A stretch of 59,861 nucleotides of DNA from Candidatus Giovannonibacteria bacterium (lineage in GTDB: Bacteria > Patescibacteriota > Minisyncoccia > UBA11713 > 2-01-FULL-45-33), in the NCBI GenBank assembly GCA_030699445.1, contig JAUYMO010000023.1, forward strand, positions 1-59,861, in the 5' to 3' direction. The notes beneath the pieces are model-generated. The model saw nothing but the letters and a program-made list of their open reading frames with translations. It had not been told where the DNA came from and made no database searches. The position numbers were made by a program, and so were the translations under genes. Positions 3,903-47,133 of the stretch are shown here, piece by piece. How positions within the stretch are numbered: position 1 is the stretch's first letter; each line of letters begins with the position of its first letter.

Positions 3903-3905
3903 CTA

Positions 3906-3934
3906 TTGACTTTGTAATTTAACGGTGCTATACT
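3906..3934 (+). promoter_or_regulatory. sigma-70-type promoter (TTGACT-17-TATACT), copy 1 of a 33-bp perfect repeat
   Basis: ttgact at 3906-3911, a 17-nt spacer, tatact at 3929-3934. A GGAGG SD and the ATG at 3976 follow. The 33-mer 3903-3935 recurs exactly at 4681-4713. Confidence 0.6.
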
Positions 3935-3975
3935 AAAAACAGAATAAAACACAATAAACAAGAAAGGAGGAAAAG

Positions 3976-4413
3976 ATGACGTATGACAAGCTTGTCGCGA
4001 AAACGCTTAAAGAAATCAAAGAAAAAGTGATGCGGATGCCGGAAAATGCTGACGTTGACACGTTGCTCAAAATCTCCAAGCACGATGATGGGCACATTGA
4101 GTCGGTGGCAAGTTTTTTGAGCCTCTGGCTTTGGATCTGGGAACGCAAAGCAGTCTGTAAGGAGCGGGATCTTTTTTTTCTCCTCGGCATTCTCCAGTGC
4201 GACGCTTGCTGTGCGGCCTTGAGGGCTAGCCCCAGTAGCGTGGAAGCCTTTACCCGTGAAGACACAGGTGTTCAAAACCTGCTTAGCGACCGGATAAATA
4301 AGCTGACCGGCGCGCTTGCCTTGGCGGAAGATGCGCACGATGAGCTCAAGGTTAACATAATTAAAATACTACTAAGCAAGCTCGAAAAACAGCAGAAAGG
4401 AGAGATAAGATAG
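3976..4413 (+). CDS. hypothetical protein (145 aa), orphan
   Basis: ORF preceded by aaaggagg SD and a consensus promoter. No recognisable motif. Antisense ORFs across the same span were judged spurious. Confidence 0.5.
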   Translation: MTYDKLVAKTLKEIKEKVMRMPENADVDTLLKISKHDDGHIESVASFLSLWLWIWERKAVCKERDLFFLLGILQCDACCAALRASPSSVEAFTREDTGVQNLLSDRINKLTGALALAEDAHDELKVNIIKILLSKLEKQQKGEIR

Positions 4414-4469
4414 CCAAAGGGGCCCGGTAAAAACTGGGCTCTTTAAATTTTACAAATTATTATTTAGTG

Positions 4470-4559
4470 CTAACGGGATTTGGGATTGTAAAAAAGCACG
4501 ATCGCAAACATTATCGCGAAAGCGATTGCGGCGATAATGTATAAAGTTAAATCATTCAT
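4470..4559 (-). CDS. 29-aa hydrophobic peptide (MNDLTLYIIAAIAFAIMFAIVLFYNPKSR)
   Basis: Below the ORF-track cutoff. A single TM helix with a basic C-terminus. It starts 1 nt after the stop of a 28-aa hydrophilic ORF (4561-4647, minus). Speculative. Confidence 0.3.
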   Translation of the reverse strand: MNDLTLYIIAAIAFAIMFAIVLFYNPKSR

Positions 4560-4683
4560 TTTATTTATTTTTACCGCGCATCGCAACAACAAAAATTTCG
4601 GAAAGATAGCGAGAGAGACTACCCAACTGTTTTTCGTTAAAACCCATAGTTTTATAATACTAAGCTTGCAATAAAACGCACTA

Positions 4684-4712
4684 TTGACTTTGTAATTTAA
4701 CGGTGCTATACT
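4684..4712 (+). promoter_or_regulatory. sigma-70-type promoter, copy 2 of the 33-bp repeat
   Basis: Same 33-mer as 3903-3935, at 4681-4713. It is followed by ggtggaaaggag SD and the ATG at 4782. Confidence 0.6.
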
Positions 4713-4781
4713 AGAACCAGAGCAAGACTGGGTTTAAATTATTGTTGTTTTTCAAAACCGAAAGGTGGAAAGGAGAGAAAG

Positions 4782-5084: not shown

Positions 5085-6167
5085 ATGGTCGGGAAACAAA
5101 AAATAACCGGACCGGCGTTTTTTATCGGAAAAGAAGGCGACGGATTAATTTCTTTCGGCTCGGGACAGCCCGACCTCCCGCCGCCCAAAGAAATTTTCAA
5201 GGGCTTGGAAAATCCCCGCCTTTTTAAATACGGGCTGATTCAAGGCGACAAAAAATTAAGAGAAGCTCTCGCTGGAGAATATCCAAAAGCTAAAGCAGGA
5301 AATTTTGTGATTACCAACGGCGCCTCGGAAGCTTTGGATTTGGCCATGCGTGTTTTGGCAAAAATGCCCGGCCAAAACAAAATCCTACTTTGCCGACCTT
5401 ATTACTATTCTTATCCGCCAATCGTAGAATTCGCCGGGCTCCAGCCAATTTACACCCAATTAAAAAACGGCCTGATTGATTTGGATGATTTCAAGAAAAA
5501 AATCAAAAAAGTAAAAGCTGTTTTAATCAACTCCCCATCCAATCCCACCGGCCGTGTGGAAACAATGGAAACTCTAAAAGCCATTGAGCGAATCACGAAA
5601 AAACTCGGCGTTTGGGTTATTTCCGACGAAGTTTACAAAGATTTAATTTACGGGCGCGAAAATTATCTGATAAAAGGCCGGCATGTGATCACCATAAATT
5701 CTTTTTCAAAAACCTACGCAATGTGCGGGTTGAGAGTCGGCTACCTTTATTCTCCGGACAGGGAATTTGTCCAAAAAATCACGGATATGAAAGTGCATAC
5801 TTCAATGAACACCAATTCCATGGGTCAGGCAATGGCGCTTTCCGCGATGCGCGCCCCGCGGAGTTATGTTAAAAATCAAGTCGCGATTTGGGAAAAAAGG
5901 CGCGACCTTATTTACGGCGGGCTTATAAAGCTCGGGTTTGATTTGTGGAAACCGGAAGGCGCTTTTTATGTGCTTCCAAAAATAAAAAATACCGAGAGCG
6001 CCTTGGGCGAGCTTTATTACAAATATAAAGTGATTGTTTACAACGGCGCCTGGTTCGGCGCGCCCGGAAGAATCCGGCTTTCCTACGCGCTGGATGAAAA
6101 GAAAATAGAAGAAGGCCTCCGGCGCATCAAAAAATTTTTAAAAGGAAAAGAGAGCTGGCTCAAATAA
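5085..6167 (+). CDS. class I/II PLP-dependent aminotransferase
   Basis: Aspartate-aminotransferase-like fold signature: NGASEAL, NSPSNPTG, SDEVY, and SFSKTYAMCGLRVGY carrying the PLP lysine. Confidence 0.85.
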   Translation: MVGKQKITGPAFFIGKEGDGLISFGSGQPDLPPPKEIFKGLENPRLFKYGLIQGDKKLREALAGEYPKAKAGNFVITNGASEALDLAMRVLAKMPGQNKILLCRPYYYSYPPIVEFAGLQPIYTQLKNGLIDLDDFKKKIKKVKAVLINSPSNPTGRVETMETLKAIERITKKLGVWVISDEVYKDLIYGRENYLIKGRHVITINSFSKTYAMCGLRVGYLYSPDREFVQKITDMKVHTSMNTNSMGQAMALSAMRAPRSYVKNQVAIWEKRRDLIYGGLIKLGFDLWKPEGAFYVLPKIKNTESALGELYYKYKVIVYNGAWFGAPGRIRLSYALDEKKIEEGLRRIKKFLKGKESWLK

Positions 6168-6256
6168 ATCCACAGCGCGACTTGCTTTTTTAAAGTGGCG
6201 GCAGTAAAGTAAAAAAAGACGGCAAATTTTAACTTCTTTCAAGAAAGGAGAAAAGC

Positions 6257-6394
6257 ATGAAGAAAAAGCTTGCAGATTTTCTCTTAGATGGGGTTATATT
6301 TTCAATTGGTTTAATAGTACTGGCGTTTATGTCCGTCTCGCGGACGATTATCAGGCTTTGCGGAGATGAAGCTAACGTGAGACTTCTGCATTAA
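6257..6394 (+). CDS. 45-aa small membrane protein, orphan
   Basis: aaaggag SD, then ATG at 6257. MKKKLADFLLDGVIFSIGLIVLAFMSVSR... has one TM helix. Below the ORF-track cutoff. Confidence 0.35.
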   Translation: MKKKLADFLLDGVIFSIGLIVLAFMSVSRTIIRLCGDEANVRLLH

Positions 6395-6428
6395 CAACGA
6401 TGGAGAAAGGAGAGGAGGGAAAAAGAAA

Positions 6429-6767
6429 ATGGGAGATGTGTTAAGATTTGATATTTCAAAAAAGAAATGGCGCCCTCGCGAAGCCTGTAGATTTTTTAGG
6501 CTAGTTGCGCACCCGCGCGCAGGAGCTCAAGAAATATATTATCGTTTCTGTGAAAAACAAAAGTTTATAAAAAAACCTGACCGCCGAGGTATTATGAGGC
6601 CGTGGAATCAAAAAGGGAAATATTTTGTCAGCACAGAAGATGAGATATTGGCTTTCAAGCGTTGCGAAAAAATCCACCCCTGCAGCCATTGCTCCAGATT
6701 CAGGCCAAAATTCCCTTTCCGCTTTAACAATATCGCGGTGCGCAAAGAGCAATCATCCCAACCTTAA
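6429..6767 (+). CDS. hypothetical basic Cys/His-containing protein (112 aa)
   Basis: Strong SD (aaaggagaggaggg), and a terminator directly after the stop. No family recognised. Confidence 0.45.
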   Translation: MGDVLRFDISKKKWRPREACRFFRLVAHPRAGAQEIYYRFCEKQKFIKKPDRRGIMRPWNQKGKYFVSTEDEILAFKRCEKIHPCSHCSRFRPKFPFRFNNIAVRKEQSSQP

Positions 6768-6792
6768 CCGCCCCATGTGGCGGTCTTTTTTT
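6767..6792 (+). terminator. rho-independent terminator
   Basis: Stem ACCGCC / GGCGGT followed by a T-run. Confidence 0.65.
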
Positions 6793-6824
6793 ACTTGTTG
6801 AAACATTAAAATAACCCTGCTAGT

Positions 6825-7484
6825 ATGAATTTTATGGATATGGAAGAAGACGATATGTATAATACCTATTTAATCCCGACGGTTATTGAAAAAGAGCAGT
6901 TCGGCGAGCGCGCCTACGATATTTATTCGCGGCTTCTTAAAGACCGCATTGTTTTTTTGGGCGGACCGATTATGGACCATGTGGCTAACACCATAATCGC
7001 CCAGTTTCTTTTTTTGGAATTGCAGGACCCTAAAAAAGACATATTTCTTTATATAAATTCTCCCGGCGGTTCGGTTTCGGCCACTTTGGCAGTTTACGAC
7101 ACGATGCAGCATATCAAGCCGGATGTTGCGACGCTTTGCGTCGGGTTCGCGGCTTCAGGTGCGGCGATACTTTTGGCGGGAGGCGCAAACGGCAAAAGAT
7201 ACGCCCTGCCCAATTCAGAAATTATGATTCACCAAGTTTTAGGGGCATCCGAAGGGCAGGCCTCGGACATCGCGATTGACGCCAAGCACATTGTGCATGT
7301 TAAAGAAAAAATAAATAAAATCTTGGCGCATCACACCAAGCAATCTCTTTCTAAAATAGAAAACGACGCCGACAGGAATTTTTATATGGATCCGGAGGAG
7401 GCCAAAAAATACGGCATCATTGACGAAATCGTGAAATCCAAAAATGTTCTCGGAAGAAATTCCAGAAACAATTCTAAAAAATAA
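6825..7484 (+). CDS. clpP: ATP-dependent Clp protease proteolytic subunit ClpP
   Basis: Motifs [40 protein letters not shown] (Ser) and MIHQ (His). A TTGAAA-17-TAGTAT promoter at 6798-6826 overlaps the first ATG, so the true start is probably 6834 or 6855. Confidence 0.9.
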
Positions 7485-9037: not shown

Positions 9038-9915
9038 AACAAACGTGGGCGAGATTTTTCACGGCGTAAAAAGCGCCTCAATTTTATTTTTGCCCTTTCT
9101 TCCAACTGCCTGACCCGCTCGCGCGTTATGCCAAAACATTTTCCAATTTCTTCTAAAGTATAATCGCGGGCATATCCGATTCCGGAGCGCATTTTTAAAA
9201 TAATCGCGTCGCGCAAAGGCTTCAGCCCATCCAACCCGCGATTCATCAATTCCCGCACCTGATTTTCTTCCGCTAAAAATCCCGGCGAAGGCACCGTTTC
9301 GTCCGCAATAAAATCGCCGACTTCAGAGGCTTCATCGTCTCCAACTTGGGTATTTAAGCTGATCGGGTCTCTCACAGTGGCCAACGTATCAACAACCGTT
9401 TCCACCGGCAGTTGGAGTTTTTCAGCAAGCTCTTCCATTGTCGGCTTGCGCCCATATTGTTGGGCCAATGCGCCGAAAGCGCGATAAATTCTCTTAATTT
9501 TTTCAGTTTGGCCCACAGGAACTCTAATGGCGCACCCTTGGCCAATCAAAGCCCGCGCAATCCATGCTCTTATCCACGGACCGGCGTAGGTACTAAGCTT
9601 AATATCCAGCTTGTAATTGAATTTATCAACGGCTCTCATCAGCCCAAAATTGCCTTCAGATATTAAATCGGAAAAATCCATTGAAGGCTTTCTCGGATAA
9701 TGTTTAGCGATGTTAACCACCAAGCGCAGATTGGCTTTTATTATACTGCCGCGGATTTTAGCGGCTAGAGCAGAATTATCTTTCGCTTTTTTCAGCTCTG
9801 CAAACGCGGCTGCCTCTTCTTCTCTGCTTAAAAGAGGCGTCTGCCCGATTTCACGCAAATAAATATCAAGTGGGTCAATTTTTCGCTTTTTCATTTTTAC
9901 AGCGCCTCCTTTCAT
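9034..9915 (-). CDS. RNA polymerase sigma-70 family factor
   Basis: Region 2 (LISEGNFGLMRAVDKFNY) and region 4 HTH (YTLEEIGKCFGITRERVRQLEERA). Its 3' end overlaps alr by 4 nt, convergent. Confidence 0.85.
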   Translation of the reverse strand: MKGGAVKMKKRKIDPLDIYLREIGQTPLLSREEEAAAFAELKKAKDNSALAAKIRGSIIKANLRLVVNIAKHYPRKPSMDFSDLISEGNFGLMRAVDKFNYKLDIKLSTYAGPWIRAWIARALIGQGCAIRVPVGQTEKIKRIYRAFGALAQQYGRKPTMEELAEKLQLPVETVVDTLATVRDPISLNTQVGDDEASEVGDFIADETVPSPGFLAEENQVRELMNRGLDGLKPLRDAIILKMRSGIGYARDYTLEEIGKCFGITRERVRQLEERAKIKLRRFLRREKSRPRLF

Positions 9916-10012
9916 ATAAAGATCGCTAAAAATAGTCTAGCCTTTTTGCCAAAATTGGTCAATTCTGCTAACATATTTTTACGCTTGGATTTTTAACAAT
10001 TTTAAATTACCT

Positions 10013-10084
10013 GCCTGGGTAGCTCAGTGGTAGAGCGCTTGCCTGAAGAGCAAGGCGTCGGCAGTTCGATTCTGCCCCCAGGCA
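10013..10084 (+). tRNA. tRNA-Phe (anticodon GAA)
   Basis: Acceptor GCCTGGG / CCCAGGC, anticodon loop CTGAAGA, T-loop TTCGATT. No encoded CCA. Confidence 0.9.
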
Positions 10085-10135
10085 AAAAAAGTCGGCTGGC
10101 TTGACCACCATAATTTAAAGAGATAAGCTTAAAAT

Positions 10136-10396
10136 ATGCCCAAAGAAATAACTATTGATGATTTGGCGCGAATGGTGCAAGGAGGATTCAAGGAGGTTAA
10201 CGGTAAATTTAATGATGCGAATAAGCACCTCGTTCATATAGATGGAAGGCTGGATCATCTAGATGCCCGCATGGGTAGAATGGAAACAGATTTAGCAGAG
10301 ATAAAGGGTGAAATAGTTTATAAGTATGAATTTGAAGATTTATCAAGCCGGGTTAAATACCTTGAAACCAAGCTTGGCGTTGAAAGCGGAAAATAA
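10136..10396 (+). CDS. hypothetical coiled-coil protein (86 aa)
   Basis: Heptad-like sequence (LDHLDARMGRMETDLAEIKGE). No family recognised. Confidence 0.5.
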   Translation: MPKEITIDDLARMVQGGFKEVNGKFNDANKHLVHIDGRLDHLDARMGRMETDLAEIKGEIVYKYEFEDLSSRVKYLETKLGVESGK

Positions 10397-10611
10397 AAGC
10401 ATCGGCTCGCCTGCCCGCCTCCGGAGGGAACCATATTTTAGGAAAAGAAAATTTTTTAATCATGAAATTAAGAAACGAGAAACACCAGAGATGGTAATTT
10501 TTTGTCGCGCTTGACTTTCAACGCCAGACATGCTATTTTTACAACAGTACAAAAATTGAGTCACGGTGGCTCAATAATATGTTTTCAAACCAAAGAAAAG
10601 GGGGTGGTTAG

Positions 10612-10848
10612 ATGTATTACAAACTTGGAGACCAACGTGAGAAGGTACGTGAAGCATTTCCGCGAAAAATGCCTGAGTCGAGAAGTGGCAAAATAAATGT
10701 TGCCGCTGAGATTGTCTCGGAGTTCGCGCGACCCTGTGGTTCCTCGGATATCCATGTTTTCTATGTTGCGGCAGGGGTCATCATCTGCGAATCTAAAAAC
10801 GCAGATGATTTCATCAGGAAGTTCGACAAATTTACTCAATCACTTTGA
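10612..10848 (+). CDS. hypothetical protein (78 aa), orphan
   Basis: A TTGACT-17-TATTTT promoter starts at 10512, with an aaggggg SD and a terminator downstream. Confidence 0.45.
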   Translation: MYYKLGDQREKVREAFPRKMPESRSGKINVAAEIVSEFARPCGSSDIHVFYVAAGVIICESKNADDFIRKFDKFTQSL

Positions 10849-10868
10849 TTTTCTGCAACTCGAACCCA

Positions 10869-10908
10869 AGCCCTTTGCGAAGTATATTTTCGCTTAGGGC
10901 TCTTTTTT
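10869..10908 (+). terminator. rho-independent terminator
   Basis: AGCCCT..GCGAA-loop-TTCGC..AGGGCT followed by TTTTTT. Confidence 0.6.
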
Positions 10909-11072
10909 ATAAAATCATTGTTATATTTCTAAAAATCAATTATTCTTTAGATATTTACTCCGTAAGTTCTGAATTTATGCCACTAAATCCGCATGCCGGT
11001 AGGATCGCCGCTGAAGGCCGCGAAATGGGTTAGAACTATTTTTAAAATAGTGCACAAAAAAATAAAATATAC

Positions 11073-11144
11073 GCGCGCTTAGCTCAGTGGTAGAGCGACC
11101 CGTTTACACCGGGTAGGTCCGGGGTTCGATCCCTCGAGCGCGCA
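11073..11144 (+). tRNA. tRNA-Val (anticodon TAC)
   Basis: Acceptor GCGCGCT / AGCGCGC, anticodon loop TTTACAC, T-loop TTCGATC. No encoded CCA. Confidence 0.9.
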
Positions 11145-11185
11145 TAAAACTTGCTTTTTACGCCGGTTCGCGCTAGGATTAAAAT

Positions 11186-11428
11186 ATGAGAAGCAAAAAA
11201 GACCGCGAACTGGAGCTCAACCAAAACACGATAACTCTCGCGAATTTTATGGAATCTTACAACAAGAGCGTTCCTTTGGATTTTCCGAAAGTGTCGGCGA
11301 AAATATTGAAAGAATTTCAGGTATTGCATCCGGCGCTTTTTAAGCGCGGCGACGAATGGTCAATAGACAAGCACAGAAAAAAGCTGATGGATTGGCTCCC
11401 CTCCTACGCCGATTCCAAAATTTCTTAA
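11186..11428 (+). CDS. hypothetical protein (80 aa)
   Basis: ORF only. No motif recognised. Confidence 0.4.
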   Translation: MRSKKDRELELNQNTITLANFMESYNKSVPLDFPKVSAKILKEFQVLHPALFKRGDEWSIDKHRKKLMDWLPSYADSKIS

Positions 11429-13092: not shown

Positions 13093-13764
13093 ATGCCTAG
13101 AGTTAAATTTGGTGAGGGCGAATATTATCATATTTTTAATAGAGGCGTAGACAAGCGCCAAATTTTTTCAAACGACGCTGATAGATGGCGTTTTCTTACG
13201 CTGTTATGTGTTTTGCAGGGAGAAAATTCTTTTCCGCAAATCGGCCGCATAGTGCCTTTTGTCAGAAGTTCAAGTTTTGACAATGAGATGTTCGACGGGA
13301 CTATAAAGACAAAATATGTGGAATTGGTAAGTTTTTGCCTAATGCCAAACCATTTTCATTTGAAAATACGTGAACTTAAAGAAGGTGGCGTCTCTAAATT
13401 TATGCAGCGTTTGCTGGGCGCTTATACCAAATACTTTAATATGCGCCATGGCCGCACAGGGCATTTATTCGGCAGCAGATTCCACGCGGTTCATATAGAC
13501 AGCAATAAATATTTAAATTATCTTTCTGCTTACATTCACTTAAATCCCCGCGAATTAAAAGAGTGGCGCGGCAAAGAAATAAAATATCCATGGTCCAGTT
13601 TTCAGGATTTTACTTTTAAGAATCGTTGGAACGCTTTTTTAAATACCTCAATTATTCTAGATCAGTTTGCCACAAGATCAGAATACAAAAAATTCGTAGA
13701 AGATACCCCCATTAAGGAGTTGCGCGAAAATTTACCGGAAGAATATCAGAAGTTCGAGTTTTGA
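13093..13764 (+). CDS. IS200/RAYT-like HUH Y1 transposase family protein (paralog 1)
   Basis: YHIFNRG, an HUH motif (PNHFHL), and YLSAYIHLNP (catalytic Tyr region), as in COG1943/RayT-type proteins. Confidence 0.75.
   Translation: MPRVKFGEGEYYHIFNRGVDKRQIFSNDADRWRFLTLLCVLQGENSFPQIGRIVPFVRSSSFDNEMFDGTIKTKYVELVSFCLMPNHFHLKIRELKEGGVSKFMQRLLGAYTKYFNMRHGRTGHLFGSRFHAVHIDSNKYLNYLSAYIHLNPRELKEWRGKEIKYPWSSFQDFTFKNRWNAFLNTSIILDQFATRSEYKKFVEDTPIKELRENLPEEYQKFEF
13261..13282 (+). repeat. same hairpin, copy B (inside the ORF, near codon 57)
   Basis: Exact 22-mer repeat of 13041-13062. It is translated as FVRSSSFD. Confidence 0.7.
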
Positions 13765-17203: not shown

Positions 17204-17986
17204 TTATTTTCCCAAAAAGTAAATAAGGATATCTATAACAATCAGAACAATTATAATTACTTCCAAAAAGTTCGCGCGCTGGCTTTGAAGCGCGGTGAGC
17301 GCGAATTCCGAATTGCTCCGAGCGAATCCGATTTTATATTCAATATTGCGAAAGCGCGGGCGCAAATCAAAAATATCCGCGAGCTGCGAAAAAAGTGTCT
17401 CCAGCCGCTCATTCCCCCAGGTAACGTCTGGCTTGTCCAAAAGCGAAAGCTTGGTTATGACAAATTGGATAATGTTGTTGTTCTGCGCGACAAGCTGAAG
17501 TATTTCTTTTGTGTTTTTTGAAAATCTCCCCTTTTCCAAACCAACATTCATTGACTCAAGATTTGCCAAAATGCCATCCGTGATGTCTTCAATATATTCC
17601 AACGCGACGGACTGCGCCAAAATTCTTGCGGCGATTTCAACCTCGCCGATTCCCACCACCGGCAAATCAGCGGACTCTTCCATCACATTGAATTTGTGTT
17701 CGGTTTCGCGCAAAACATAATTGTCGTCGTATCCCGGCTTGGCGGGGCTCGTTAAAAATTTATTCAAAGATTTTTTAATGGAGAACTGCGTGTCCTTGGC
17801 GATATTGGCGAAAACAACCGCGCCGAAAGAAAAAATAAACAAAAATTCGCGCGGGCCCAAAAGATACGTCAAAAATTCGCGCCGGCGCCCGATTAAATTT
17901 TTGTCCAATTTATCCGCGGCTTTCGCCAAATTTATTTCTTTCGCCAGATAAATCGCCTCCAGATTGTATTCTTTATAATCCTGCAT
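17204..17986 (-). CDS. RMD1/DUF155 family protein
   Basis: Length, the FGAVVFANI core and a C-terminal TM helix resemble DUF155 proteins. Judged by eye only. Confidence 0.55.
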   Translation of the reverse strand: MQDYKEYNLEAIYLAKEINLAKAADKLDKNLIGRRREFLTYLLGPREFLFIFSFGAVVFANIAKDTQFSIKKSLNKFLTSPAKPGYDDNYVLRETEHKFNVMEESADLPVVGIGEVEIAARILAQSVALEYIEDITDGILANLESMNVGLEKGRFSKNTKEILQLVAQNNNIIQFVITKLSLLDKPDVTWGNERLETLFSQLADIFDLRPRFRNIEYKIGFARSNSEFALTALQSQRANFLEVIIIVLIVIDILIYFLGK

Positions 17987-18013
17987 AGCCCTATTATACC
18001 ACCTAAAAATAAA

Positions 18014-18039
18014 CCCCCCGCATGCGGGGGTTTTTTGTT
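18014..18039. terminator. GC hairpin flanked by A-run and T-run
   Basis: CCCCCGCATGCGGGGG with flanking runs, between tRNA-Pro and the DUF155 gene. Confidence 0.55.
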
Positions 18040-18171
18040 CGGCTTTTTCCTTTTTTTCTTTTTTCTCTTTTTTTCTTTTTTCTTGCTTTTAAGTTTGCAA
18101 TTCGTATAGTTATTCATAAAAGCCTCCCTCCTGTTAAAGAGATAGCATGACAATATATAAAAAACAACTTG

Positions 18172-18242
18172 TCGGGCTGCTGGGAATCGAACCCAGTCTC
18201 TCTGCTCCCAAAGCAGATGTACTGCCACCATACTCCAGCCCG
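18172..18242 (-). tRNA. tRNA-Pro (anticodon TGG)
   Basis: Acceptor CGGGCTG / CAGCCCG, anticodon loop TTTGGGA, T-loop TTCGATT. No encoded CCA. Confidence 0.88.
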
Positions 18243-18266
18243 CCTTCGGCGGGTAAACCCACTTCT

Positions 18267-18328
18267 ACAAATTCACGTTCTCAAGCATCCTAATCCTAGC
18301 TTTTTTGCGCGGAAAATCAAGGTAAATT
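18267..18328 (-). repeat. 62-bp remnant copy of the yraN 3' end
   Basis: 56/62 identical to 19602-19663. On the minus strand it still reads LDFPRKKARIRMLENVNL-stop but is preceded by a stop codon. Confidence 0.8.
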
Positions 18329-19073
18329 ATTTATCGAGCGAATTCCACATAAGTTCAAAGGCCGCTCGTTGCATTTGATTAATCTCTTTGCTTTCAATAA
18401 TTACGCCCATAAAATTTTCGCGATAAGATATAATTGCGATTTTATTCGCATAGATTTCCATATCTGCATTAAATTGAAATGGCGAATCTTTCACAATACG
18501 AATTTCTCGCAAATCTTGAACGGCTGTATTTTTCCAAGATCGAGCGGCTGGAGAATTGGAGGCAATGATGCGAATGCGAATTTTTCTTCTAACTCTTTCT
18601 TGTATGTAATAATCGGCATATTCTTGAGGCACCAGTTTTGAAAAATCAGAAAGTCCCGTATAACTAAAAATGATGTCGCCTTCTTTACAACTTTCAAGCG
18701 TATCCTCATAAAGATTTTTCATGCCCCCTACGCCCTCATAAAATGTAATGCGAGGCTTTAATGGAATAATATTTTGAATCGCGAGAAGCTCCGGCATCAA
18801 CTTATCAATAACATTTTCTTTTTCCTTTATACCGTTCTTCAGTGAGCGTGGGTCTTCCACAAAATAAACTTTTCGCTTTTTCTTGACGGTAGAAGTAACG
18901 ATGCCGCGGTTAATAAAATCCGGAAGGATATTATATACCGTCGTCCGTTTAATGCCGGCCTTTTTGGCAAGTTGCACAACAGACGCCTCGCCGAGCTCTA
19001 AAAGAGCTAAGTAAATCCGGGCCTCTTTCGGCTTTAGTCCAACATATTCAAGAGATTTTTCTATATTTGCCAT
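18327..19073 (-). CDS. TrmB-family transcriptional regulator
   Basis: N-terminal winged-helix motif LKPKEARIYLALLELGEASVVQLAKKAGIKRTTVYNIL. Confidence 0.7.
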   Translation of the reverse strand: MANIEKSLEYVGLKPKEARIYLALLELGEASVVQLAKKAGIKRTTVYNILPDFINRGIVTSTVKKKRKVYFVEDPRSLKNGIKEKENVIDKLMPELLAIQNIIPLKPRITFYEGVGGMKNLYEDTLESCKEGDIIFSYTGLSDFSKLVPQEYADYYIQERVRRKIRIRIIASNSPAARSWKNTAVQDLREIRIVKDSPFQFNADMEIYANKIAIISYRENFMGVIIESKEINQMQRAAFELMWNSLDK

Positions 19074-19177
19074 ACTATGTCTACTATTTTAGACATACTT
19101 TTATTATATCAAAAACCTTTAATATAAAGCAAATTTTAGATATATAGCTTAAAATGGCACTTTATTGTCTACATATA

Positions 19178-19206
19178 TTGACATCATTTCAATATTAGGA
19201 TATAAT
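19178..19206 (+). promoter_or_regulatory. consensus sigma-70 promoter (TTGACA-17-TATAAT)
   Basis: Exact consensus hexamers with a 17-nt spacer. It drives the 19282 ORF. The palindrome TATGTCTA-N6-TAGACATA at 19076-19097 is a likely TrmB-type operator. Confidence 0.65.
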
Positions 19207-19281
19207 GTGAGTAGAAAGTAAAGATAGCTCATTAAGATTAACGTAGGCCTAAAAAGCCGAATAACAACAAGGAGGAGAATA

Positions 19282-19494
19282 ATGCCTAGATATTTTGTTT
19301 CTGGGATATATGGCTGGGATTCTGTTTCCATGAGAGACTCATCTTTCGTAGAGGACGTCGAAATCGAGAAATCGATAAGCCGTAGAGAAGATCTGAAAAA
19401 AGTTGAAGAGTTTCTTAGAGATCTGTTTGAATCAAGGGATGGCAAGTCCGCTGGGTTTATCGAAATTCGTTCATTTAGTCTTTATATAACCTGA
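19282..19494 (+). CDS. hypothetical protein (70 aa), orphan
   Basis: aaggaggag SD, a consensus promoter and a downstream hairpin. No family recognised. Confidence 0.45.
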   Translation: MPRYFVSGIYGWDSVSMRDSSFVEDVEIEKSISRREDLKKVEEFLRDLFESRDGKSAGFIEIRSFSLYIT

Positions 19495-19599
19495 CATCAA
19501 AAGAAAGTGCCAGCCACACTTTCATTAATAAGGCAGGACGAGACCGCAGCGCAAAAACAAAAGCCCCGCGATGGAAACATCAACGGGCTTTTTTCTTTT

Positions 19600-19974
19600 T
19601 CACAAATTCACATTTTCCAGCATCCTAATCCTAGCTTTTTTACGCGTAAAATCAAGGAAAATTGCTACCACATCAATTTCAAAATCTTTGTCGTCCGCGA
19701 TTTTTCGTTCCGCGAGATAAGTTCTTATCGCTCGGGATAACCGCTGTTTTTTCCACGCCCGCACCGCATCCTCCGGCCGAAAGTTCGGATTGGAAATCGC
19801 TTTCACCTCCACAAAATGTAAAATCCCCTCTTTTTCTGCAATAATATCCAACTCGCCCCATTTTTTGCGGTAATTTCTTTCAACAATCTTAAATCCCCTC
19901 TTTTCCAAAAATCTGCACGCCAAGCCCTCCCCGATATTCCCGACTTTTTGCTTTTGCGTAATTTTCTTTGCCAT
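19600..19974 (-). CDS. yraN: YraN family endonuclease (UPF0102)
   Basis: GEGLACRFLEKRGFKIVERNYR..GELDIIA...HFVEVK is typical of UPF0102. Confidence 0.8.
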   Translation of the reverse strand: MAKKITQKQKVGNIGEGLACRFLEKRGFKIVERNYRKKWGELDIIAEKEGILHFVEVKAISNPNFRPEDAVRAWKKQRLSRAIRTYLAERKIADDKDFEIDVVAIFLDFTRKKARIRMLENVNL

Positions 19975-20027
19975 TTTGACAATTTTATAACAATTAGGTA
20001 GCGTATGCCATAGAAAGGACAGACAAA

Positions 20028-20303
20028 ATGCTTAATAAACTTGAAAAAATGACGCGAAAATTGTTTTGTCTTTGCTTCGCCAGCACTTTTGTATCCTTTG
20101 CTTTGGGTTTTATTTTAATAGACCAAATAGCATCCCTATATTTTGCCGAGTTGAACCCGTTACCGCGTTTTTTGCTTAATTTTTCCCTAACATCCGCCTT
20201 AAGCGTTGGTATTATGGAAGTAATTTTTGGGCGCATCATAGACCCAATAGCCACGGAAATAGTGGAGATGGAAGAACTGTTGGAAAAAGAAAGCAAAACT
20301 TAA
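20028..20303 (+). CDS. hypothetical membrane protein (91 aa)
   Basis: Two hydrophobic helices and an acidic tail. A terminator lies at 20306-20331. Confidence 0.4.
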   Translation: MLNKLEKMTRKLFCLCFASTFVSFALGFILIDQIASLYFAELNPLPRFLLNFSLTSALSVGIMEVIFGRIIDPIATEIVEMEELLEKESKT

Positions 20304-25263: not shown

Positions 25264-26136
25264 CTAACGTGACGAGGTCGCACCTCGTCGGCGGGCATGA
25301 AAAGCTTTATGGACTTCTTTTAATTGTTTGTCGGTAAAATGTGTGTAGATTTGCGTGGTGGAAATGTTGGAGTGGCCGAGCATAATCTGGACCGAACGGA
25401 GGTCGGCTCCGTTTTGCAATAAATCTGTGGCAAAAGCGTGGCGCAGGACATGCGGGGTGACTTTTTTGGCGATGCCCGCCTTAATCGCGTATTTTTTTAT
25501 CATTCGCTGGATTGAGCGCGGTGTCATCGGAAATAATTTATCGTTATCCACACTGCCGCGCTTTTCTAAATATTTTTTGATGGCCTCTTTGGCGCGGTCG
25601 GACAAAAAGACAACCCTAATCTTCCCGCCCTTTCCGCGGACGGAAAATTCGTCGCGTTTTAAATTAACATTATCAATTTTTAAATTGCAAAGCTCCGAAA
25701 TACGGAGTCCGGTTGAAAAAAAGAGTTCCAAAATCGCTTTGTCTCTTAAAATTTTCGCGGACTCGCCCTTGGGAGAGTCCAGCAATCTTTCCAAGTCGGC
25801 AATATCCAAAAGGTCTAATTCTCGCTGGGGAAGCTTGGCGAGCTCAATTTTTTCGGCATCCAGCGAATCAATATCTCTTTTCGCAAGATATTTCAAAAAC
25901 ATCCGGAGCGCGATGACATAATAATTCTGCGTATTTTTGTCCAAGTTCGCGCGGTTAAGATAAAGCCGGTATTTTCTTACTAACTCTTCGGTAATCTGGC
26001 CAGCAGAATCAATTTTTGAAAATTCAAAAAACCTTTTTAAATACCTGTCATAATTTTCTACAGTCTTCACGGCTCTCCCTTTTTCAATCTCTAGATATTC
26101 AAGAAACTCCTTCTTTAATTTTGCGACACTTTCCAT
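25264..26136 (-). CDS. tyrosine recombinase XerC/XerD family
   Basis: [31 protein letters not shown] and [14 protein letters not shown]. Confidence 0.88.
25271..25289 (-). repeat. same hairpin, copy C' (inverted, perfect 8-bp stem)
   Basis: GACGAGGT-CGC-ACCTCGTC, 8 nt after the RAYT-like stop. It encodes the last residues (RRGATSS) of the convergent xer gene. Confidence 0.7.
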
Positions 26137-33049: not shown

Positions 33050-34569
33050 AACTCCATTCGGCGGAAGTTGTTGGTTTGGAGGGAAAAATTATTGACGTGG
33101 AAATTGATCTCTCGCGCGGACTTTTTAGTTTCGCGATTGTGGGGCTCGCGGATAAGGCAATCGCCGAATCCAAAGAAAGAGTCTCCGCGGCGATAAAAAG
33201 CCTCGGGGCCAAGCCGCCTAACCAAAAAAACCAGCGAGTCACGATTTCTCTGGCTCCGGCGGATTTAAAAAAGGAAGGGCCGGCTTTTGATTTGCCCATA
33301 GCGCTTTCCTACCTTTTGGCCTCCAAACAAGCAAATTTTGAAACAAAAAATAAAATTTTTCTGGGCGAGCTCGCTTTAGATGGCGCCCTTCGCCCAATAA
33401 AGGGCTCTTTGGCCCTTGCCGAAACCGCCAAAAAGAAAGGATTTTCCGAAATATTTTTGCCCGCGGGAAACGGCGCCGAAGCGTCTTTAATTGAGGGCAT
33501 AAAAGTTTTTGAAGCCGCTTCTCTGGAGGAAATTTTAAACCATCTGGAAAATAAAGTTTTAATAAAAGAATTCCCGCCGACAAAATTTATAAAATCAGAA
33601 TTTTCTTTCACGACGGATTTTTCCGACATCCGCGGGCAGGAATCCGCAAAAAGGGGGTTAGAAATCGCGGCGGCGGGCTCGCATAACGCTCTTATGATAG
33701 GCCCGCCGGGCACGGGAAAAACCATGCTGGCGCGGGCGTTTTCCACAATTTTACCTCCGCTTTCCCGCGACGAAGCGCTGGAGGTCACAAAAATACATTC
33801 CATATCGGGCGCTTTGAAAGAAAATGAAACTTTAATCAGAGAGCGCCCTTTTAGAAATCCGCATCATACGTCTTCTTACATTTCGTTAGTCGGCGGAGGC
33901 AGTTATCCAAAGCCCGGAGAAATAACTTTGGCCCACAGGGGAGTTTTATTTTTAGACGAGTTCGCGGAATTTGAAAGGCGGGTGATTGAAGTTTTGCGCC
34001 AGCCACTGGAAGATAAAGTGGTAACAGTTGCCCGCGCTAAAGCCACCCTGACTTTCCCGGCGCAAATTATGCTGATTTTGGCGATGAACCCATGCCCTTG
34101 CGGAAATTTGGGTTCCAATAAAACCTGCATCTGCCCAACCTCGGCCATCAATCGTTATCAAAGAAAAATTTCCGGGCCGATTGTTGACCGGATTGATTTG
34201 TGGCTGGGTGTTTACGGCATTGAACATAAAAAATTGGAAGACGACCCGCCGGGAACCAGAAGAGAAAAGTCGGATGAAATACGCAAGCGCGTTGAGTATG
34301 CGCGGGAAACCCAGAAAAAAAGATTTGCCGGAAGCAAAATTATGACCAACTCTGAAATGTCCGTTCGAGATATTAAAAAATATTGCGTTTTGGACGACGA
34401 ATCAAAATCAATTTTACAGCAAGCCGCCGCTCGGCTGGATTTATCTCCGCGTTCTTACCACCGCGTCATCAAACTCGCCCGCACCATCGCCGATCTGGAA
34501 AACACAAAAGAAATAAAAAAAGAACATTTGCTGGAAGCTTTACAATACCGCCCGAAACAATTGGTATAA
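33040..34569 (+). CDS. comM: YifB/ComM Mg-chelatase-like AAA+ ATPase
   Basis: Lon-like N-terminal domain, Walker A (GPPGTGKT), LFLDEF, a CPCG..C.C motif and C-terminal SPRSYHRVIKLARTIADLE. Confidence 0.9.
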   Translation: MAVKLHSAEVVGLEGKIIDVEIDLSRGLFSFAIVGLADKAIAESKERVSAAIKSLGAKPPNQKNQRVTISLAPADLKKEGPAFDLPIALSYLLASKQANFETKNKIFLGELALDGALRPIKGSLALAETAKKKGFSEIFLPAGNGAEASLIEGIKVFEAASLEEILNHLENKVLIKEFPPTKFIKSEFSFTTDFSDIRGQESAKRGLEIAAAGSHNALMIGPPGTGKTMLARAFSTILPPLSRDEALEVTKIHSISGALKENETLIRERPFRNPHHTSSYISLVGGGSYPKPGEITLAHRGVLFLDEFAEFERRVIEVLRQPLEDKVVTVARAKATLTFPAQIMLILAMNPCPCGNLGSNKTCICPTSAINRYQRKISGPIVDRIDLWLGVYGIEHKKLEDDPPGTRREKSDEIRKRVEYARETQKKRFAGSKIMTNSEMSVRDIKKYCVLDDESKSILQQAAARLDLSPRSYHRVIKLARTIADLENTKEIKKEHLLEALQYRPKQLV

Positions 34570-34580
34570 AACAAAAGAAA

Positions 34581-34670
34581 TTATCTTGTTTTTTTTGTCG
34601 CAATCACCACCAAAGCTAAGGCAATGATTACCAGCGCGGCAAGTATGTAAGATTGAACCATAATGTCCAT
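34581..34670 (-). CDS. 29-aa hydrophobic peptide (MDIMVQSYILAALVIIALALVVIATKKTR)
   Basis: Same design as the 4470-4559 peptide. Inside comM-flank insert 1. Speculative. Confidence 0.3.
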   Translation of the reverse strand: MDIMVQSYILAALVIIALALVVIATKKTR

Positions 34671-34686
34671 ATTATTAATAATGAAA

Positions 34687-34866
34687 CTAATTTTTAATGA
34701 GGGCTATGCTAAAATACCAAGAAATTAAGGATAGAACCAACCCCATAGAAAGCGAGAATAAATTAGCTGTGCCAGCCACTAAAGGGCCTATGACAATTGA
34801 AGCAAATAAAACTTGCGCAATGTCCCGAGAAATATTCGATATGACATGAATCTTCCCGAATTCCAT
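34687..34866 (-). CDS. 59-aa small membrane protein
   Basis: MEFGKIHVISNISRDIAQVLFASIVIGPLVAGTANLFSLSMGLVLSLISWYFSIALIKN. Below the ORF-track cutoff. Confidence 0.3.
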   Translation of the reverse strand: MEFGKIHVISNISRDIAQVLFASIVIGPLVAGTANLFSLSMGLVLSLISWYFSIALIKN

Positions 34867-34919
34867 GAACTTATGGTAGCATAGGCTTATAAAATGTCCA
34901 CAATATTAGAAAAGATTTT

Positions 34920-34982
34920 GAAAACATAAAAAAAGAGCACCTCCTTGAGGCGCTCCAGTATAGGCCGAAACAGTTGATATAA
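34920..34982 (+). repeat. remnant copy 2 of the comM 3' end
   Basis: It reads KNIKKEHLLEALQYRPKQLI-stop, against EIKKEHLLEALQYRPKQLV-stop in comM. Many differences are synonymous. A stop codon lies just upstream. Confidence 0.8.
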
Positions 34983-35215
34983 ATGTATAGCTATGCTATG
35001 AATTTATCCACACACGATAACGGCTACAAATTGTTATAATAATTAAGTGCCTAATAAATGCGGGCACAGAAGGGGATAAAGGTTTTTGAATCACATTTAG
35101 GTTTTGGAGGCCTATAATGTTTGACGAATCCTAAATCTTGTAACTTCTTGGGCGTGGAATCCCTTAAAGCATCCCCTTCTGAGCTCGAACTTCCGAGACA
35201 TTTTTTATTTATTTT

Positions 35216-35611
35216 CTATTCACTCGGCGTATTATTTTCAAGGTTCTTTTCAGAAAGTTTTATATAAATAATTTTCCCGTGCTGATTATCAGTTAATTTT
35301 TCAGGAGTATATTTCCCCGCAAATTTTACTGGATCAATTCCGTAAGCCCGAATAAATGAGTGTGGAGCAACAGAAGCTGTTTTGCTACCGCTGTGCGTTA
35401 TCTTAAAGGCGCCCTCCTTCCTGTCTTTTCCAAAAGAAAAACCAACGGCCTTTTTTTCCTTATCGTAAAATATAGTAACAAATGAGTATTGAGACAAAGA
35501 CTCCTTCCTATAAAATCCGGCATTAAAAGAAAATCCACCAGCCTTATTAAGGCTAATAGTATAAGAAAATCTAGCTCCTATTTCTGTAAATTTGTTGAAT
35601 TGAAACTCCAT
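35216..35611 (-). CDS. hypothetical protein (131 aa)
   Basis: ORF inside comM-flank insert 2, bracketed by the inverted TTATCCACACAC 12-mers. No family recognised. Confidence 0.5.
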   Translation of the reverse strand: MEFQFNKFTEIGARFSYTISLNKAGGFSFNAGFYRKESLSQYSFVTIFYDKEKKAVGFSFGKDRKEGAFKITHSGSKTASVAPHSFIRAYGIDPVKFAGKYTPEKLTDNQHGKIIYIKLSEKNLENNTPSE

Positions 35612-35714
35612 GTTCTAATTGTATCATGCGCAATAAAAAAAACAATAGCAAGTGTGTGGATAAGTTTTTTTAAAACTAAAAGTCCTTGTTTATAAGGTGT
35701 TTTTAGAGCGAAAC

Positions 35715-35771
35715 ATAAAAAAAGAGCACCTGCTAGAGGCGCTCCAGTATAGGCCGAAGTCGCTAATTTAG
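35715..35771 (+). repeat. remnant copy 3 of the comM 3' end
   Basis: It reads IKKEHLLEALQYRPKSLI-stop. Confidence 0.8.
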
Positions 35772-36136
35772 ATAAACCCTTTAGGCGCGGCTTCTTGCTC
35801 TTCTTGGCACAGCGGGTTTTTTTCGCCAGCCAAATCACAGAATTTTTGCTTGGTCCTAGCCAGCTTTTCATCCGCGGCTTCGTTTTCGTCTATTATTTTA
35901 GAAAGCCGCTGCTTAATCTGGGTATTTTCAGCCAGCGTTGCTTGCCTCGCTTTAATCGCAAGCTCTATTAACTCCTCCTTATGGCTGATACCGAGGTCAA
36001 CTCTTTCCGAAAAAGCTTGTTTATATTCTTTTAACGCATTATTAAGTCGGGCTTGATGAACTAGCTTTGGAATAAAGCCTGTCAGCATACCAGCAACAAA
36101 AATAACGAACGCCCAAATAAGATATCTTTTAACCAT
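35768..36136 (-). CDS. hypothetical TM plus coiled-coil protein (122 aa)
   Basis: N-terminal TM helix, then a helical region. No family recognised. Confidence 0.5.
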   Translation of the reverse strand: MVKRYLIWAFVIFVAGMLTGFIPKLVHQARLNNALKEYKQAFSERVDLGISHKEELIELAIKARQATLAENTQIKQRLSKIIDENEAADEKLARTKQKFCDLAGEKNPLCQEEQEAAPKGFI

Positions 36137-36260
36137 CCGCGTCTCCTTTCGTGTTTTTTTCTTTTACTACTATACACCTTTCAACAAAAAAATAAAGCGC
36201 GCAGGGATGGATGTCTCCTTACGCGCTTAAAATTCGGAGGGGAAAAAGAATTGGAAGGGT

Positions 36261-36845: not shown

Positions 36846-36937
36846 CTTTCACCTCCATAATTGTATTGTCACCAGCGAGTTATTCGCCAGCTTACTCTGC
36901 CTACCATTATACACCCGGGGGCTAAAAAAGTCAATAG

Positions 36938-46710: not shown

Positions 46711-47133
46711 ATGCAGCACCAAGTCCCACAATTTATAGATATAGAAGATAAAATTTTCGGGCCTTTAACGGCCAAGCAGTTTTTCTATATCTTGGGCGGC
46801 GCCGCTATTCTTTTTATAATGTACGTTTATCTTCAGCTTTGGCTGGTAATTATTCTTGGCGCTCCGGTCGCGGCGTTCGCCGGTTCTCTGGCGTTTTTGA
46901 AAATCAACGGCCAGCCATTTATTAAAATTCTTGGGAGCGCCATAGATTACGCTTCTTCGGCAAGATTATATTTGTGGAAGAAGAGCCCGCCGCGCGGGAA
47001 AACACTCGGTGTTTTTGGGGATTCAACACCGAGTGTTGAGGAGCGCGAGCGGGCTACAACCCCCAAACTCACCCAAAGCAAATTACAAGATTTATCCTGG
47101 TCCTTAGACATCCAAAAAAATATTAAACGATAA
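46711..47133 (+). CDS. PrgI-family (VirB3-analogue) membrane protein
   Basis: QVPQFIDIEDKIFGPLTAKQFFYILGG plus two TM helices, directly upstream of VirB4-like genes. It carries the 37-nt element at 47001-47037. Confidence 0.65.
   Translation: MQHQVPQFIDIEDKIFGPLTAKQFFYILGGAAILFIMYVYLQLWLVIILGAPVAAFAGSLAFLKINGQPFIKILGSAIDYASSARLYLWKKSPPRGKTLGVFGDSTPSVEERERATTPKLTQSKLQDLSWSLDIQKNIKR

Follow-up and report, generated by a model that had tools for sequence, protein, structure and literature searches.

In Escherichia coli, phage 21 and the element e14 integrate in icd, where the incoming element brings a substitute 3′ end that differs from the native one mostly by synonymous changes and leaves the displaced native end as a pseudo-tail. 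The cargo islands of Prochlorococcus known as tycheposons form arrays at RNA genes and have dedicated integrases. Here, we describe a related arrangement in a bacterium of the candidate phyla radiation (CPR), a 1.27-kb insert between yraN and the tRNA-Pro(UGG) gene of Candidatus Giovannonibacteria, on a stretch of 59,861 nt (contig JAUYMO010000023.1, assembly GCA_030699445.1). This full stretch is referred to as the window, and L-numbers (L002, L012 and so on) denote related loci that were fetched for comparison. In streptococci, cis-mobilizable elements (CIMEs) accrete in tandem at gene 3′ ends, and those of the ICESt1/ICESt3 family are understood to be decay products of integrase-bearing integrative and conjugative or integrative and mobilizable elements (ICEs and IMEs) (PMC5704250). 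In Dehalococcoides, tandem genomic islands are linked to an RNA gene, ssrA (PMC3146451).

The reading that we favor, and hold to be reasonably probable, is that the insert is an old cassette that entered the tail of yraN, that the displaced copy of this tail was kept as the promoter of the tRNA gene, and that the event belongs to a recurrent CPR process involving recombinase-less cassettes, for which an enzyme acting in trans is preferred.

The locus resembles CIMEs in that its cargo lies between directly repeated 3′ ends of a conserved gene, contains no recombination genes and leaves the target intact, and in that successive elements are stacked with the newest beside the target gene. It departs from them in that no integrase-bearing parent was found here, the inserts are much smaller (0.35–2 kb), there is no conjugation context and the host is a CPR bacterium. 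Like phage 21 and e14, the insert would have supplied a substitute protein-coding tail with mostly synonymous differences and left the displaced native end; unlike these prophages of tens of kilobases with an integrase in cis, it comprises 1.3 kb of regulator and cargo, has no integrase, and has a displaced tail with a putative second function. Arrays at one conserved gene, borders of gene-end repeats and cargo-only units are shared with the Dehalococcoides ssrA islands and with tycheposons, whereas the targets of those systems are RNA genes and their arrays contain integrases; here the targets are protein-coding tails with no linked integrase. In their very small units of one or two genes without a recombinase, their wealth of toxin–antitoxin genes, their arrays and an enzyme that would be encoded elsewhere, the inserts recall integron cassettes, clusters of attC sites lacking integron integrases (CALINs) and Xer-dependent pdif modules, from which they differ in that the repeats are the coding tail of the target and not attC hairpins or 28-bp dif-like sites.

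An integron cassette array or CALIN was rejected on the grounds that the repeats are in-frame copies of a coding tail, that no intI is present, and that the tyrosine recombinase encoded at 25264–26136 scores as Xer. This Xer-like gene exceeds the archaeal XerA cut-off and adjoins an NYN-domain gene, in a neighborhood that is conserved in L006. The yraN tail itself contains only the palindrome TTTTAC-GC-GTAAAA, with a 2-nt spacer, in which no 28-bp dif-like site (11-nt inverted arms on both sides of a 6-nt spacer) was recognized, the dif sequence of CPR not being known. A transposon or insertion sequence was also rejected: there is no transposase in the insert, there are no terminal inverted repeats at the window locus, and 62 nt is far longer than known target-site duplications. 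Elsewhere in the window, an open reading frame (ORF) of 223 aa (13093–13764) has an IS200-like Y1 transposase domain, with the repetitive extragenic palindrome (REP)-associated tyrosine transposase as its best NCBIfam model, below cut-off. The differences from known integrated elements are insert size, host group and the putative second role of the displaced tail; a cognate integrase was absent from the yraN, comM and rny tails in ~170 loci, a limited sample.

The insert in the yraN tail

The borders of the insert are formed by the following features.

18171–18242, minus strand: tRNA-Pro(UGG) gene (ARAGORN; Rfam tRNA, 55.8 bits)
18243–18266, minus strand: spacer with the hairpin CCCGCC-GAAG-GCGGG running into the tRNA 5′ end, like the spacers in L013, L026 and L002
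18267–18328, minus strand: copy A, the yraN tail copy on the tRNA side (direct repeat, 56/62)
19602–19663, minus strand: copy B, the working yraN tail, adjoining the insert (direct repeat, 56/62)
19600–19974, minus strand: yraN, intact, 124 aa, UPF0102 family (Pfam UPF0102, E 1.7e-22; NCBIfam YraN models)

An initial annotation had reported 62-bp direct repeats at this locus, of which the second was taken as the real 3′ end of yraN and the first as a readable but cut-off copy 24 nt from tRNA-Pro, with a TrmB-family regulator and a 70-aa orphan between them and no integrase. All of this stands. The copies are identical at 56 of 62 positions and span the last 20 codons of yraN; the number of repeats of such quality expected by chance in a 60-kb window, as estimated from the sequence, is far below 1e-10. 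Copy B ends an intact gene whose orthologs in L002 and L009–L011 are 76–77% identical to it, and we interpret this copy as the cassette-side tail. Copy A, which comes after the TAA of the upstream gene, still encodes IYLDFPRKKARIRMLENVNL-stop, with an in-frame TAA two codons before it, and its end is 24 nt from the tRNA 5′ end. Such a repeat of a gene 3′ end on either side of an insert is a mark of site-specifically integrated elements (islands and CIMEs).

The 1.27 kb between the copies comprise a gene for a TrmB-like regulator, two divergent promoters, two predicted operators, an ORF of 70 aa without relatives (ORFan) and a terminator; no recombinase gene is found inside. The GC content of the insert is below that of its flanks, and the GC content at third codon positions (GC3) is 0.35 for both insert genes vs 0.47–0.53 for the neighboring core genes. 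An Rfam search of 17900–20100 returned the tRNA as the sole match, the repeat, leader and terminator belonging to no known RNA family. Just 3′ of tRNA-Pro lies a 60-nt pyrimidine-rich tract of CTTTTTT-like units (18043–18102), which adjoins the terminator hairpin of the DUF155 gene (18015–18030).

Uninterrupted sites in relatives, which the initial annotation had proposed to look for, confirm that the locus is the product of an insertion. In L009, L010 and L011 (Giovannonibacteria/Parcubacteria GW2011_GWC1_45_13), the yraN stop codon is 2 nt from tRNA-Pro(UGG), and DUF155 and tRNA-Gly(UCC) follow as in the window, the yraN and DUF155 products being 76% and 77–79% identical to those of the window. 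At least 12 further Patescibacteria loci have tRNA-Pro(UGG) within 17–60 nt of yraN, and the same aquifer study also yielded a related contig (run X2) on which the tRNA directly adjoins the yraN tail. Since hairpin spacers between the yraN stop and tRNA-Pro also occur at the uninterrupted sites L013 and L026, copy A, spacer and tRNA are taken as the ancestral arrangement, to which the insert and copy B were added. Six other loci (L012, L015, L018, L023, L029 and L035) have 0.8–4 kb between yraN and the tRNA, in which a tail copy was not detected by BLAST.

Two side observations concern these comparison loci. L009 and L010 are two contigs of the metagenome-assembled genome GW2011_GWC1_45_13, each with a yraN–tRNA-Pro–DUF155–tRNA-Gly locus, and their sequences differ; two related strains are probably combined in this bin. 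Genes for large serine recombinases are located directly beside tRNA-Pro(UGG) in L012 (10445–11911) and beside tRNA-Gly(UCC) in L010 (6495–7916) and L011 (6491–7570), and another is found in L090 (1–732), which suggests a separate element family integrated at these tRNA genes in Giovannonibacteria.

The age of the insertion can be read from L002–L005, which belong to another Giovannonibacteria species and have the order yraN, Fic, a gene for 193 aa, TrmB, copy A, tRNA-Pro and DUF155. Their amino acid identities to the window are 80% for TrmB, 77% for yraN and 80% for DUF155, and third-codon-position identity between the window and L002 is 0.54 for TrmB and 0.58 for DUF155. The insert has diverged as much as its flanks and so has been inherited vertically since before the species split. 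By this comparison the insertion is old, not recent, and dates back to an ancestor that the window organism shares with one or more other species. The yraN insert is now fixed in the chromosome and passed on vertically.

Later arrivals are seen at the same site. In L002, a 1-kb helix-turn-helix (HTH)–Fic cassette lies within the last ~25 nt of yraN, so that YraN ends in ...ENIILA instead of ...ENVNL; part of the old tail (GCTTGAGAATGTGAATTTGTGA) is kept and is followed by the same terminator as at the cassette edge of the window. L014 has the same Fic cassette (85% nucleotide identity) with an extra two-gene pair, possibly an AbiE-type toxin–antitoxin system, between yraN and Fic, and its yraN end is altered again. 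The further cassettes of L002 and L014 sit inside the tail equivalent to copy B, with the terminator after the partial yraN tail in both; newcomers therefore enter beside yraN and push older cassettes outward.

Copy A is non-coding in the window and in L002, yet it is 90% identical between them over 59 nt, while the third codon positions of neighboring genes are 54–58% identical. On this comparison, copy A is a constrained functional element and not a decaying scar. It contains promoter-like parts, a −35-like TTGATT (18315–18320) and a −10-like TAGGAT (18293–18298 and 18287–18292). In L012, where 4 kb separate yraN from the tRNA, the 32 nt directly upstream of the tRNA, CTTGATTTTAAGCCAAAAAACGATAGGATTAG, match copy A at 26 of 32 positions, and this remnant covers exactly TTGATT-16-TAGGAT, the remaining tail being lost. 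The yraN tail of L012 itself has drifted synonymously, with identical codons at 38–50% of identical residues vs 65–88% in other tails. CPR genomes with a longer yraN–tRNA spacer have a TATGCTAnTAT-type −10 region in the spacer, to which GCTAGGAT in the Giovannonibacteria yraN tail is similar. We infer that the last ~60 nt of yraN most likely double as the promoter (TTGATT-16-TAGGAT) and leader of tRNA-Pro. An insert between yraN and the tRNA would survive only if both functions were kept, which duplication of the tail would achieve, and copy A would have persisted because it probably holds the tRNA promoter. As an objection to insertion, the initial annotation had raised a regulatory element common downstream of many genes; the regulatory part is likely correct for copy A, but its sequence is locus-specific and not widespread downstream of genes.

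Displaced tails at comM and rny

The parallel with comM that had been drawn from the window is borne out, with three copies of the comM tail, and tail duplication extends to rny in other CPR genomes. The comM features of the window are as follows.

34509–35773, plus strand: comM tail (34509–34571) and displaced tails (34922–34984 and 35711–35773), bracketing two cassettes
34687–34866, minus strand: cassette ORF of 59 aa, between tail copies
35216–35611, minus strand: cassette ORF of 131 aa, between tail copies

All three copies encode IKKEHLLEALQYRPK(Q/S)L(V/I)-stop, and copy 1 is 68% identical to copy 2 (45/66 nt) and 58% to copy 3 (38/66 nt). In the closest relatives (L090, L092 and L110) the site is empty: comM and an M23/LysM peptidase gene are convergent and ~15 nt apart, where the window has 2.37 kb. 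The comM gene of L089 is 94% identical to that of the window, but its last ~80 nt and the downstream sequence differ sharply, so the comM tail has been exchanged. Homologs of the 131-aa protein (51–83% identity) occur in unrelated accessory contexts, including a type I restriction–modification island and a site beside HicAB. Past the two cassettes, the comM–M23/LysM interval (34509–36937) also holds genes for 122 aa (35768–36136, minus strand) and 194 aa (36261–36845, minus strand), after which no recognizable tail copy was found.

A displaced copy of the last 20 residues of each ORF was sought for 2258 ORFs in all fetched loci. The hits were confined to yraN, comM and rny, apart from one match in L095 that was set aside, and within the window alone yraN and comM are the sole genes with displaced tails. 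The target genes, loci and cargo are listed below.

yraN; window and L002–L005; TrmB-like module (plus Fic in L002–L005)
comM; window; ORF of 59 aa, ORF of 131 aa
comM; L099; antitoxin and PemK/MazF
comM; L126; HATPase-DUF4325 protein
rny (RNase Y); L013, 8937–9507; HicB/HicA
rny (RNase Y); L028, ~6001–6853; HicB/HicA
rny (RNase Y); L036, ~9341–11417; divergent cargo and TrmB-like gene, plus antitoxin/ParE

No recombinase gene is found in the nine inserts (0.35–2 kb) at these three genes. In L036, from Kaiserbacteria, the architecture of the window is repeated at rny with a TrmB paralog that is 25% identical. All differences between the two rny tails of L028 (~87 nt), 13 or more over 29 codons, are synonymous. 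Mainly synonymous differences, as seen at rny and comM, imply that both tails diverged while functional, and thus that the cassettes brought their tail from another lineage.

Other repeats were noted in passing. In the L095 match (2790–2915), the final 20 residues of a long ORF recur at 17/20 positions just 64 nt beyond its end, which could reflect either a tail duplication of very short span or an artifact of assembly or frameshift. In the window, a 48-nt direct repeat (3903–3950 and 4681–4728, 90% identical) contains a TTGACT-17-TATACT promoter; its first copy lies right after the stop codon of the H+-pyrophosphatase gene, the pair brackets an ORF of 145 aa (3976–4413), and an ORF of 73 aa follows the second copy. 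Here too, a duplicated functional element may mark the borders of a small insertion. The window also contains, at two places 6 kb apart (47001–47037 and 53033–53069), the 37-nt palindromic element AACACTCGGTGTT...AACACCGAGTGTT.

The TrmB-like regulatory module

The cargo of the yraN insert consists of the following features.

18327–19073, minus strand: TrmB-like regulator, 248 aa, with winged helix-turn-helix (wHTH), long helix and phospholipase D (PLD)-fold domain (Pfam, AlphaFold, Foldseek)
19076–19097, no strand: predicted operator O1, perfect palindrome TATGTCTA-N6-TAGACATA, between the regulator −10 and ATG
19103–19132, minus strand: regulator promoter TTGCTT-18-TATAAT, read by eye, conserved in all contexts, below the scan threshold
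19166–19183, no strand: predicted operator O2, TGTCTA-N6-TTGACA, overlapping the cargo promoter −35 (pattern match)
19178–19206, plus strand: cargo promoter TTGACA-17-TATAAT, 12/12 match in the scan, conserved in five contexts
19207–19281, plus strand: cargo-gene leader of ~70 nt with the small hairpin GGCC-TAAAAA-GCC, conserved in the window, L006 and L007
19282–19494, plus strand: 70-aa ORFan, the variable cargo, with an AAGGAGG ribosome-binding site 7 nt upstream
19503–19523, minus strand: further terminator-like hairpin from the terminator scan, located between ORFan and bidirectional terminator
19553–19598, no strand: bidirectional terminator hairpin at the cassette edge, an inverted repeat of 21 nt + 21 nt that starts right after the yraN stop

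The regulator has an N-terminal TrmB wHTH (PF01978, E 8.8e-14, residues 8–75). Its AlphaFold model (pLDDT 88.6) matches TrmBL2 (5bpd) in Foldseek with E 1e-13 over ~260 columns, and the C-terminal domain has the PLD fold found in the nucleases Zucchini, SauUSI and NgoAVII. As modeled, the regulator has the TrmBL2 architecture of wHTH, coiled coil or long helix, and PLD-like domain. An alignment of 29 homologs contains no invariant His, as the HxK(x)4D catalytic motif would require, and the PLD fold is therefore non-catalytic. The likeness to the TrmBL2/TrmB family thus lies in the TrmB-type wHTH, the long dimerization helix and the non-catalytic PLD-fold domain, whereas the window protein is bacterial (CPR) and, at 248 aa, lacks the C-terminal sugar-binding subdomain of TrmB proper (~340 aa); the sequence match to 3qph covers residues 4–130 only, and the scores against the NCBIfam TrmB and TrmBL1 models are far below cut-off. 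It also differs from TrmBL2 in its specific palindromic operators, which are predicted, in place of chromatin-like binding.

The 431 homologs of the TrmB-like protein are all from Patescibacteria (CPR) metagenomes, the nearest named source being Candidatus Giovannonibacteria, and identical copies of the window proteins occur on one groundwater contig. Searches of the regulator, ORFan and cassette proteins against PHROGs and PADLOC gave generic HTH similarity only and no phage or defense assignment; neither TrmB-like relatives nor the repeat core were found in viral contigs or phage records, and a plasmid search returned only distant full-length homologs (24–28% identity) on proteobacterial megaplasmids. 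TrmB-like genes are common around the tRNA cluster (L013, L020, L021, L027, L028, L036 and L038) and also occur in L169.

The perfect TTGACA-17-TATAAT promoter and the palindrome at 19076–19097, both singled out in the initial annotation, proved to lie in a conserved stretch. The ~210 nt upstream of the regulator gene, which contain both promoters, O1 and O2, with the leader in three contexts, are ~80% conserved in all contexts. The O1 core TGTCTACTATTTTAGACA is also conserved upstream of homologs of 61–64% identity (L170 and L172), and O2 has equivalents in L002, L006, L007 and L169. Judged by this conservation, the O1/O2 promoter region is a real regulatory region kept in five or more contexts. 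The window, L006 and L007 share the nucleotide sequence of the leader although the ORFs behind it are unrelated, and the leader hairpin has a compensatory change (GGC/GCC vs GGTC/GACC); no Rfam family matches the leader. The cargo itself varies. The 70-aa ORF has no homolog among 5.8 billion proteins, and the same position is held elsewhere by unrelated ORFs of 193 aa (L002), 69 aa (L006), 147/230 aa (L007/L008) and 124 aa (L169), which have no mutual similarity. We infer from these sequences that the TrmB-like protein would repress two targets, its own gene through O1 and the cargo promoter through O2, and the module may be read as an autoregulated repressor that also controls an exchangeable cargo gene.

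The TrmB unit extends from the terminator after the yraN stop to the TrmB stop codon, and the window, L006 and L008 have the same edges, with the same bidirectional terminator. The unit is found between the NusA and pyrophosphatase genes in L006 (TrmB 75% identical), upstream of DUF2283-DksA-AhpC-ComM in L007/L008 (84%) and near the CCA-adding enzyme gene in L169 (74%). In L007/L008 the module is flanked by a 51-nt inverted repeat (L008 337–387 and 2110–2160, 88% complementary), which begins with the left gene's stop codon; another 50 nt along comes a third, partial copy, and the repeat is absent from the window. The terminator region (19499–19601) recurs in L006 at 4446–4489 and 10389–10446, one copy being after the HU gene, and on a high-coverage contig of another organism with different flanks (run X3), and the cassette-edge terminator may be a widespread CPR terminator or small repeat element.

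Proposed routes of insertion and their meaning for CPR genomes

In the favored reading, the 1.27-kb cassette would have entered the last 20 codons of yraN in the common ancestor, in a clade with 2–60 nt between yraN and tRNA-Pro(UGG), by Campbell-type recombination between a cassette-borne and the chromosomal yraN tail. The gene would have stayed intact because the incoming DNA carried its own working tail, by which the native tail was displaced to the far side as copy A. The event would be one case of a recurrent CPR process in which a few housekeeping genes (yraN, comM and rny) receive at their 3′ ends small recombinase-less cassettes that carry TrmB-like modules, toxin–antitoxin pairs, Fic or ORFans, with new cassettes stacking beside the gene. 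A site-specific recombinase supplied in trans, as with CIMEs, is the preferred agent.

Several observations weigh against this reading. Neither an excised circle nor a same-strain empty junction was seen in the assembled (Logan) contigs of runs that hold the locus. The only tyrosine recombinase of the window, the Xer-like protein, is encoded 6 kb away, and no recombinase is tied to the events; as for the large serine recombinases encoded beside the tRNA genes, enzymes of this kind do not make long repeats. The shared core of the yraN and comM repeats that the initial annotation had proposed to look for did not materialize: their longest common string is 7–8 nt, and 7 nt or more arise in roughly one in four trials with shuffled sequences, which leaves a single enzyme recognizing a shared sequence unsupported. 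Repeat lengths also vary from ~18 to ~93 nt. The same TrmB module, which the initial annotation had proposed to seek between other gene 3′ ends, has no gene-tail direct repeats around it at the three other loci, with none in L006 and the inverted repeat instead in L008. With regard to copy A, the excess of synonymous conservation in the yraN tail is measured over ~20 codons, and TTGATT-16-TAGGAT matches the E. coli consensus at 8/12 positions and was unflagged by a sigma-70 scan, so that the promoter proposal draws on comparative data. Finally, L014 has a 37%-identical TrmB paralog in the same position and no copy A; its tRNA apparently uses TTGGCT-17-TATAAA, a candidate promoter inside the paralog, and copy A would thus be dispensable where another promoter is available.

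The alternative that survives best, which we consider unlikely though still to be reckoned with, is homologous recombination only, in which a fragment of a related genome, circular or linear, bearing a gene tail with its downstream DNA, joins the resident tail through RecA or by homology-facilitated illegitimate recombination, and selection, in place of an enzyme, accounts both for tails as targets and for repeats that span whatever needs to be kept. DNA uptake occurs in CPR bacteria, the window encodes ComM, and only fragments with the very 3′ end would leave the gene intact. Nine cassettes without a recombinase gene, three unrelated targets without a shared core and variable repeat lengths all suit this alternative, as does the repeat of L028 with its 32-nt perfect block. 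The cargo ORF is swapped between a conserved leader/promoter and terminator (50–70 nt each) at orthologous and non-orthologous loci, which points to exchange through short conserved anchors. The tiny gaps (2 nt for yraN–tRNA and ~15 nt for comM–M23) imply that a junction outside the tail would damage the neighbor, so that selection would pass tail-bearing fragments only. Yet the tails were already 20–29% diverged at joining (pairs 71–80% identical), and the identical blocks of 8–11 nt in L036 and between comM copies 1 and 2 are a poor RecA substrate. The events also concentrate in three genes out of many scanned, and this concentration, together with the low tail identity, fits a site-specific enzyme in trans better than homologous recombination, which in addition needs a circular intermediate or an unusual illegitimate join.

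An ordinary decayed island is improbable. Here an integrase-bearing element at the yraN tail would have later lost all but the TrmB module and its attachment sites, becoming a CIME by deletion. Gene-3′-end direct repeats flanking integrase-free cargo, with tandem stacking, are the CIME picture (PMC5704250), and the event is old enough for decay. Nine independent inserts that are all at most 2 kb and integrase-free are difficult to reconcile with it, as is the lack of any integrase-bearing element at the three gene tails in ~170 loci, and the clean, identical module edges in L006, L008 and the window argue for a unit rather than a random deletion remnant.

Very improbable is a local rearrangement without a horizontal element, by which a TrmB module beside yraN would have been duplicated or transposed with yraN and deletions would have left the 62-nt promoter remnant. 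The abundance of TrmB-like genes around this tRNA cluster, with a TrmB paralog just upstream of yraN in L013, the equal divergence of insert and flanks, and the constraint on copy A would agree with it. It needs several steps with exact end points, however, and it is at odds with the GC3 of the insert, which is clearly below that of the flanks, with the same architecture at rny in Kaiserbacteria around a 25%-identical paralog, and with the synonymous differences of the comM and rny tails, which point to a foreign origin. That the TrmB-like protein is itself the insertion enzyme, acting through its PLD-fold domain as a nuclease or recombinase, is scarcely credible: the fold is common to the nucleases named above and TrmB-like modules lie in tail-bounded inserts at two genes (the window and L036), but the absence of an invariant His leaves no HKD motif, over its full length the protein best matches TrmBL2, a chromatin protein that is not catalytic, TrmB-like genes are missing from most tail-duplicating cassettes (comM twice, L099, L126, L013 and the Fic cassette), and the predicted palindromic operators fit a repressor.

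Beyond the favored reading of an old cassette insertion, a wider proposal can be made tentatively and is, as it stands, doubtful: Patescibacteria may possess an as yet undescribed class of mini mobile cassettes of 0.3–2 kb that have no recombinase, carry toxin–antitoxin pairs, Fic, TrmB-like regulator modules and ORFans, use a 50–90-nt working tail of a housekeeping gene as attachment site, insert by tail replacement through the host Xer, competence/RecA or an unrecognized recombinase, and form integron-like arrays. The yraN insert is of moderate interest in itself; more interesting as a lead is this unproven class of tail-carrying mini-cassettes.

The genomes of CPR bacteria are tiny and have few recognizable mobile elements, and their gain of accessory genes is poorly understood. 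The locus offers a concrete route of gene gain, in which small cassettes lie at the 3′ ends of housekeeping genes with a replacement tail, as in nine inserts without a recombinase. If the promoter proposal is right, a protein-coding tail that doubles as a tRNA promoter would explain the conservation of an old "scar". The TrmB-like module, in which a repressor and a fixed promoter and leader are combined with an exchangeable gene, would offer experimenters a defined regulatory unit. Should the pattern prove general, the mobile gene pool and its insertion hotspots in CPR metagenomes could be found by a simple sequence signature, the displaced gene tails.

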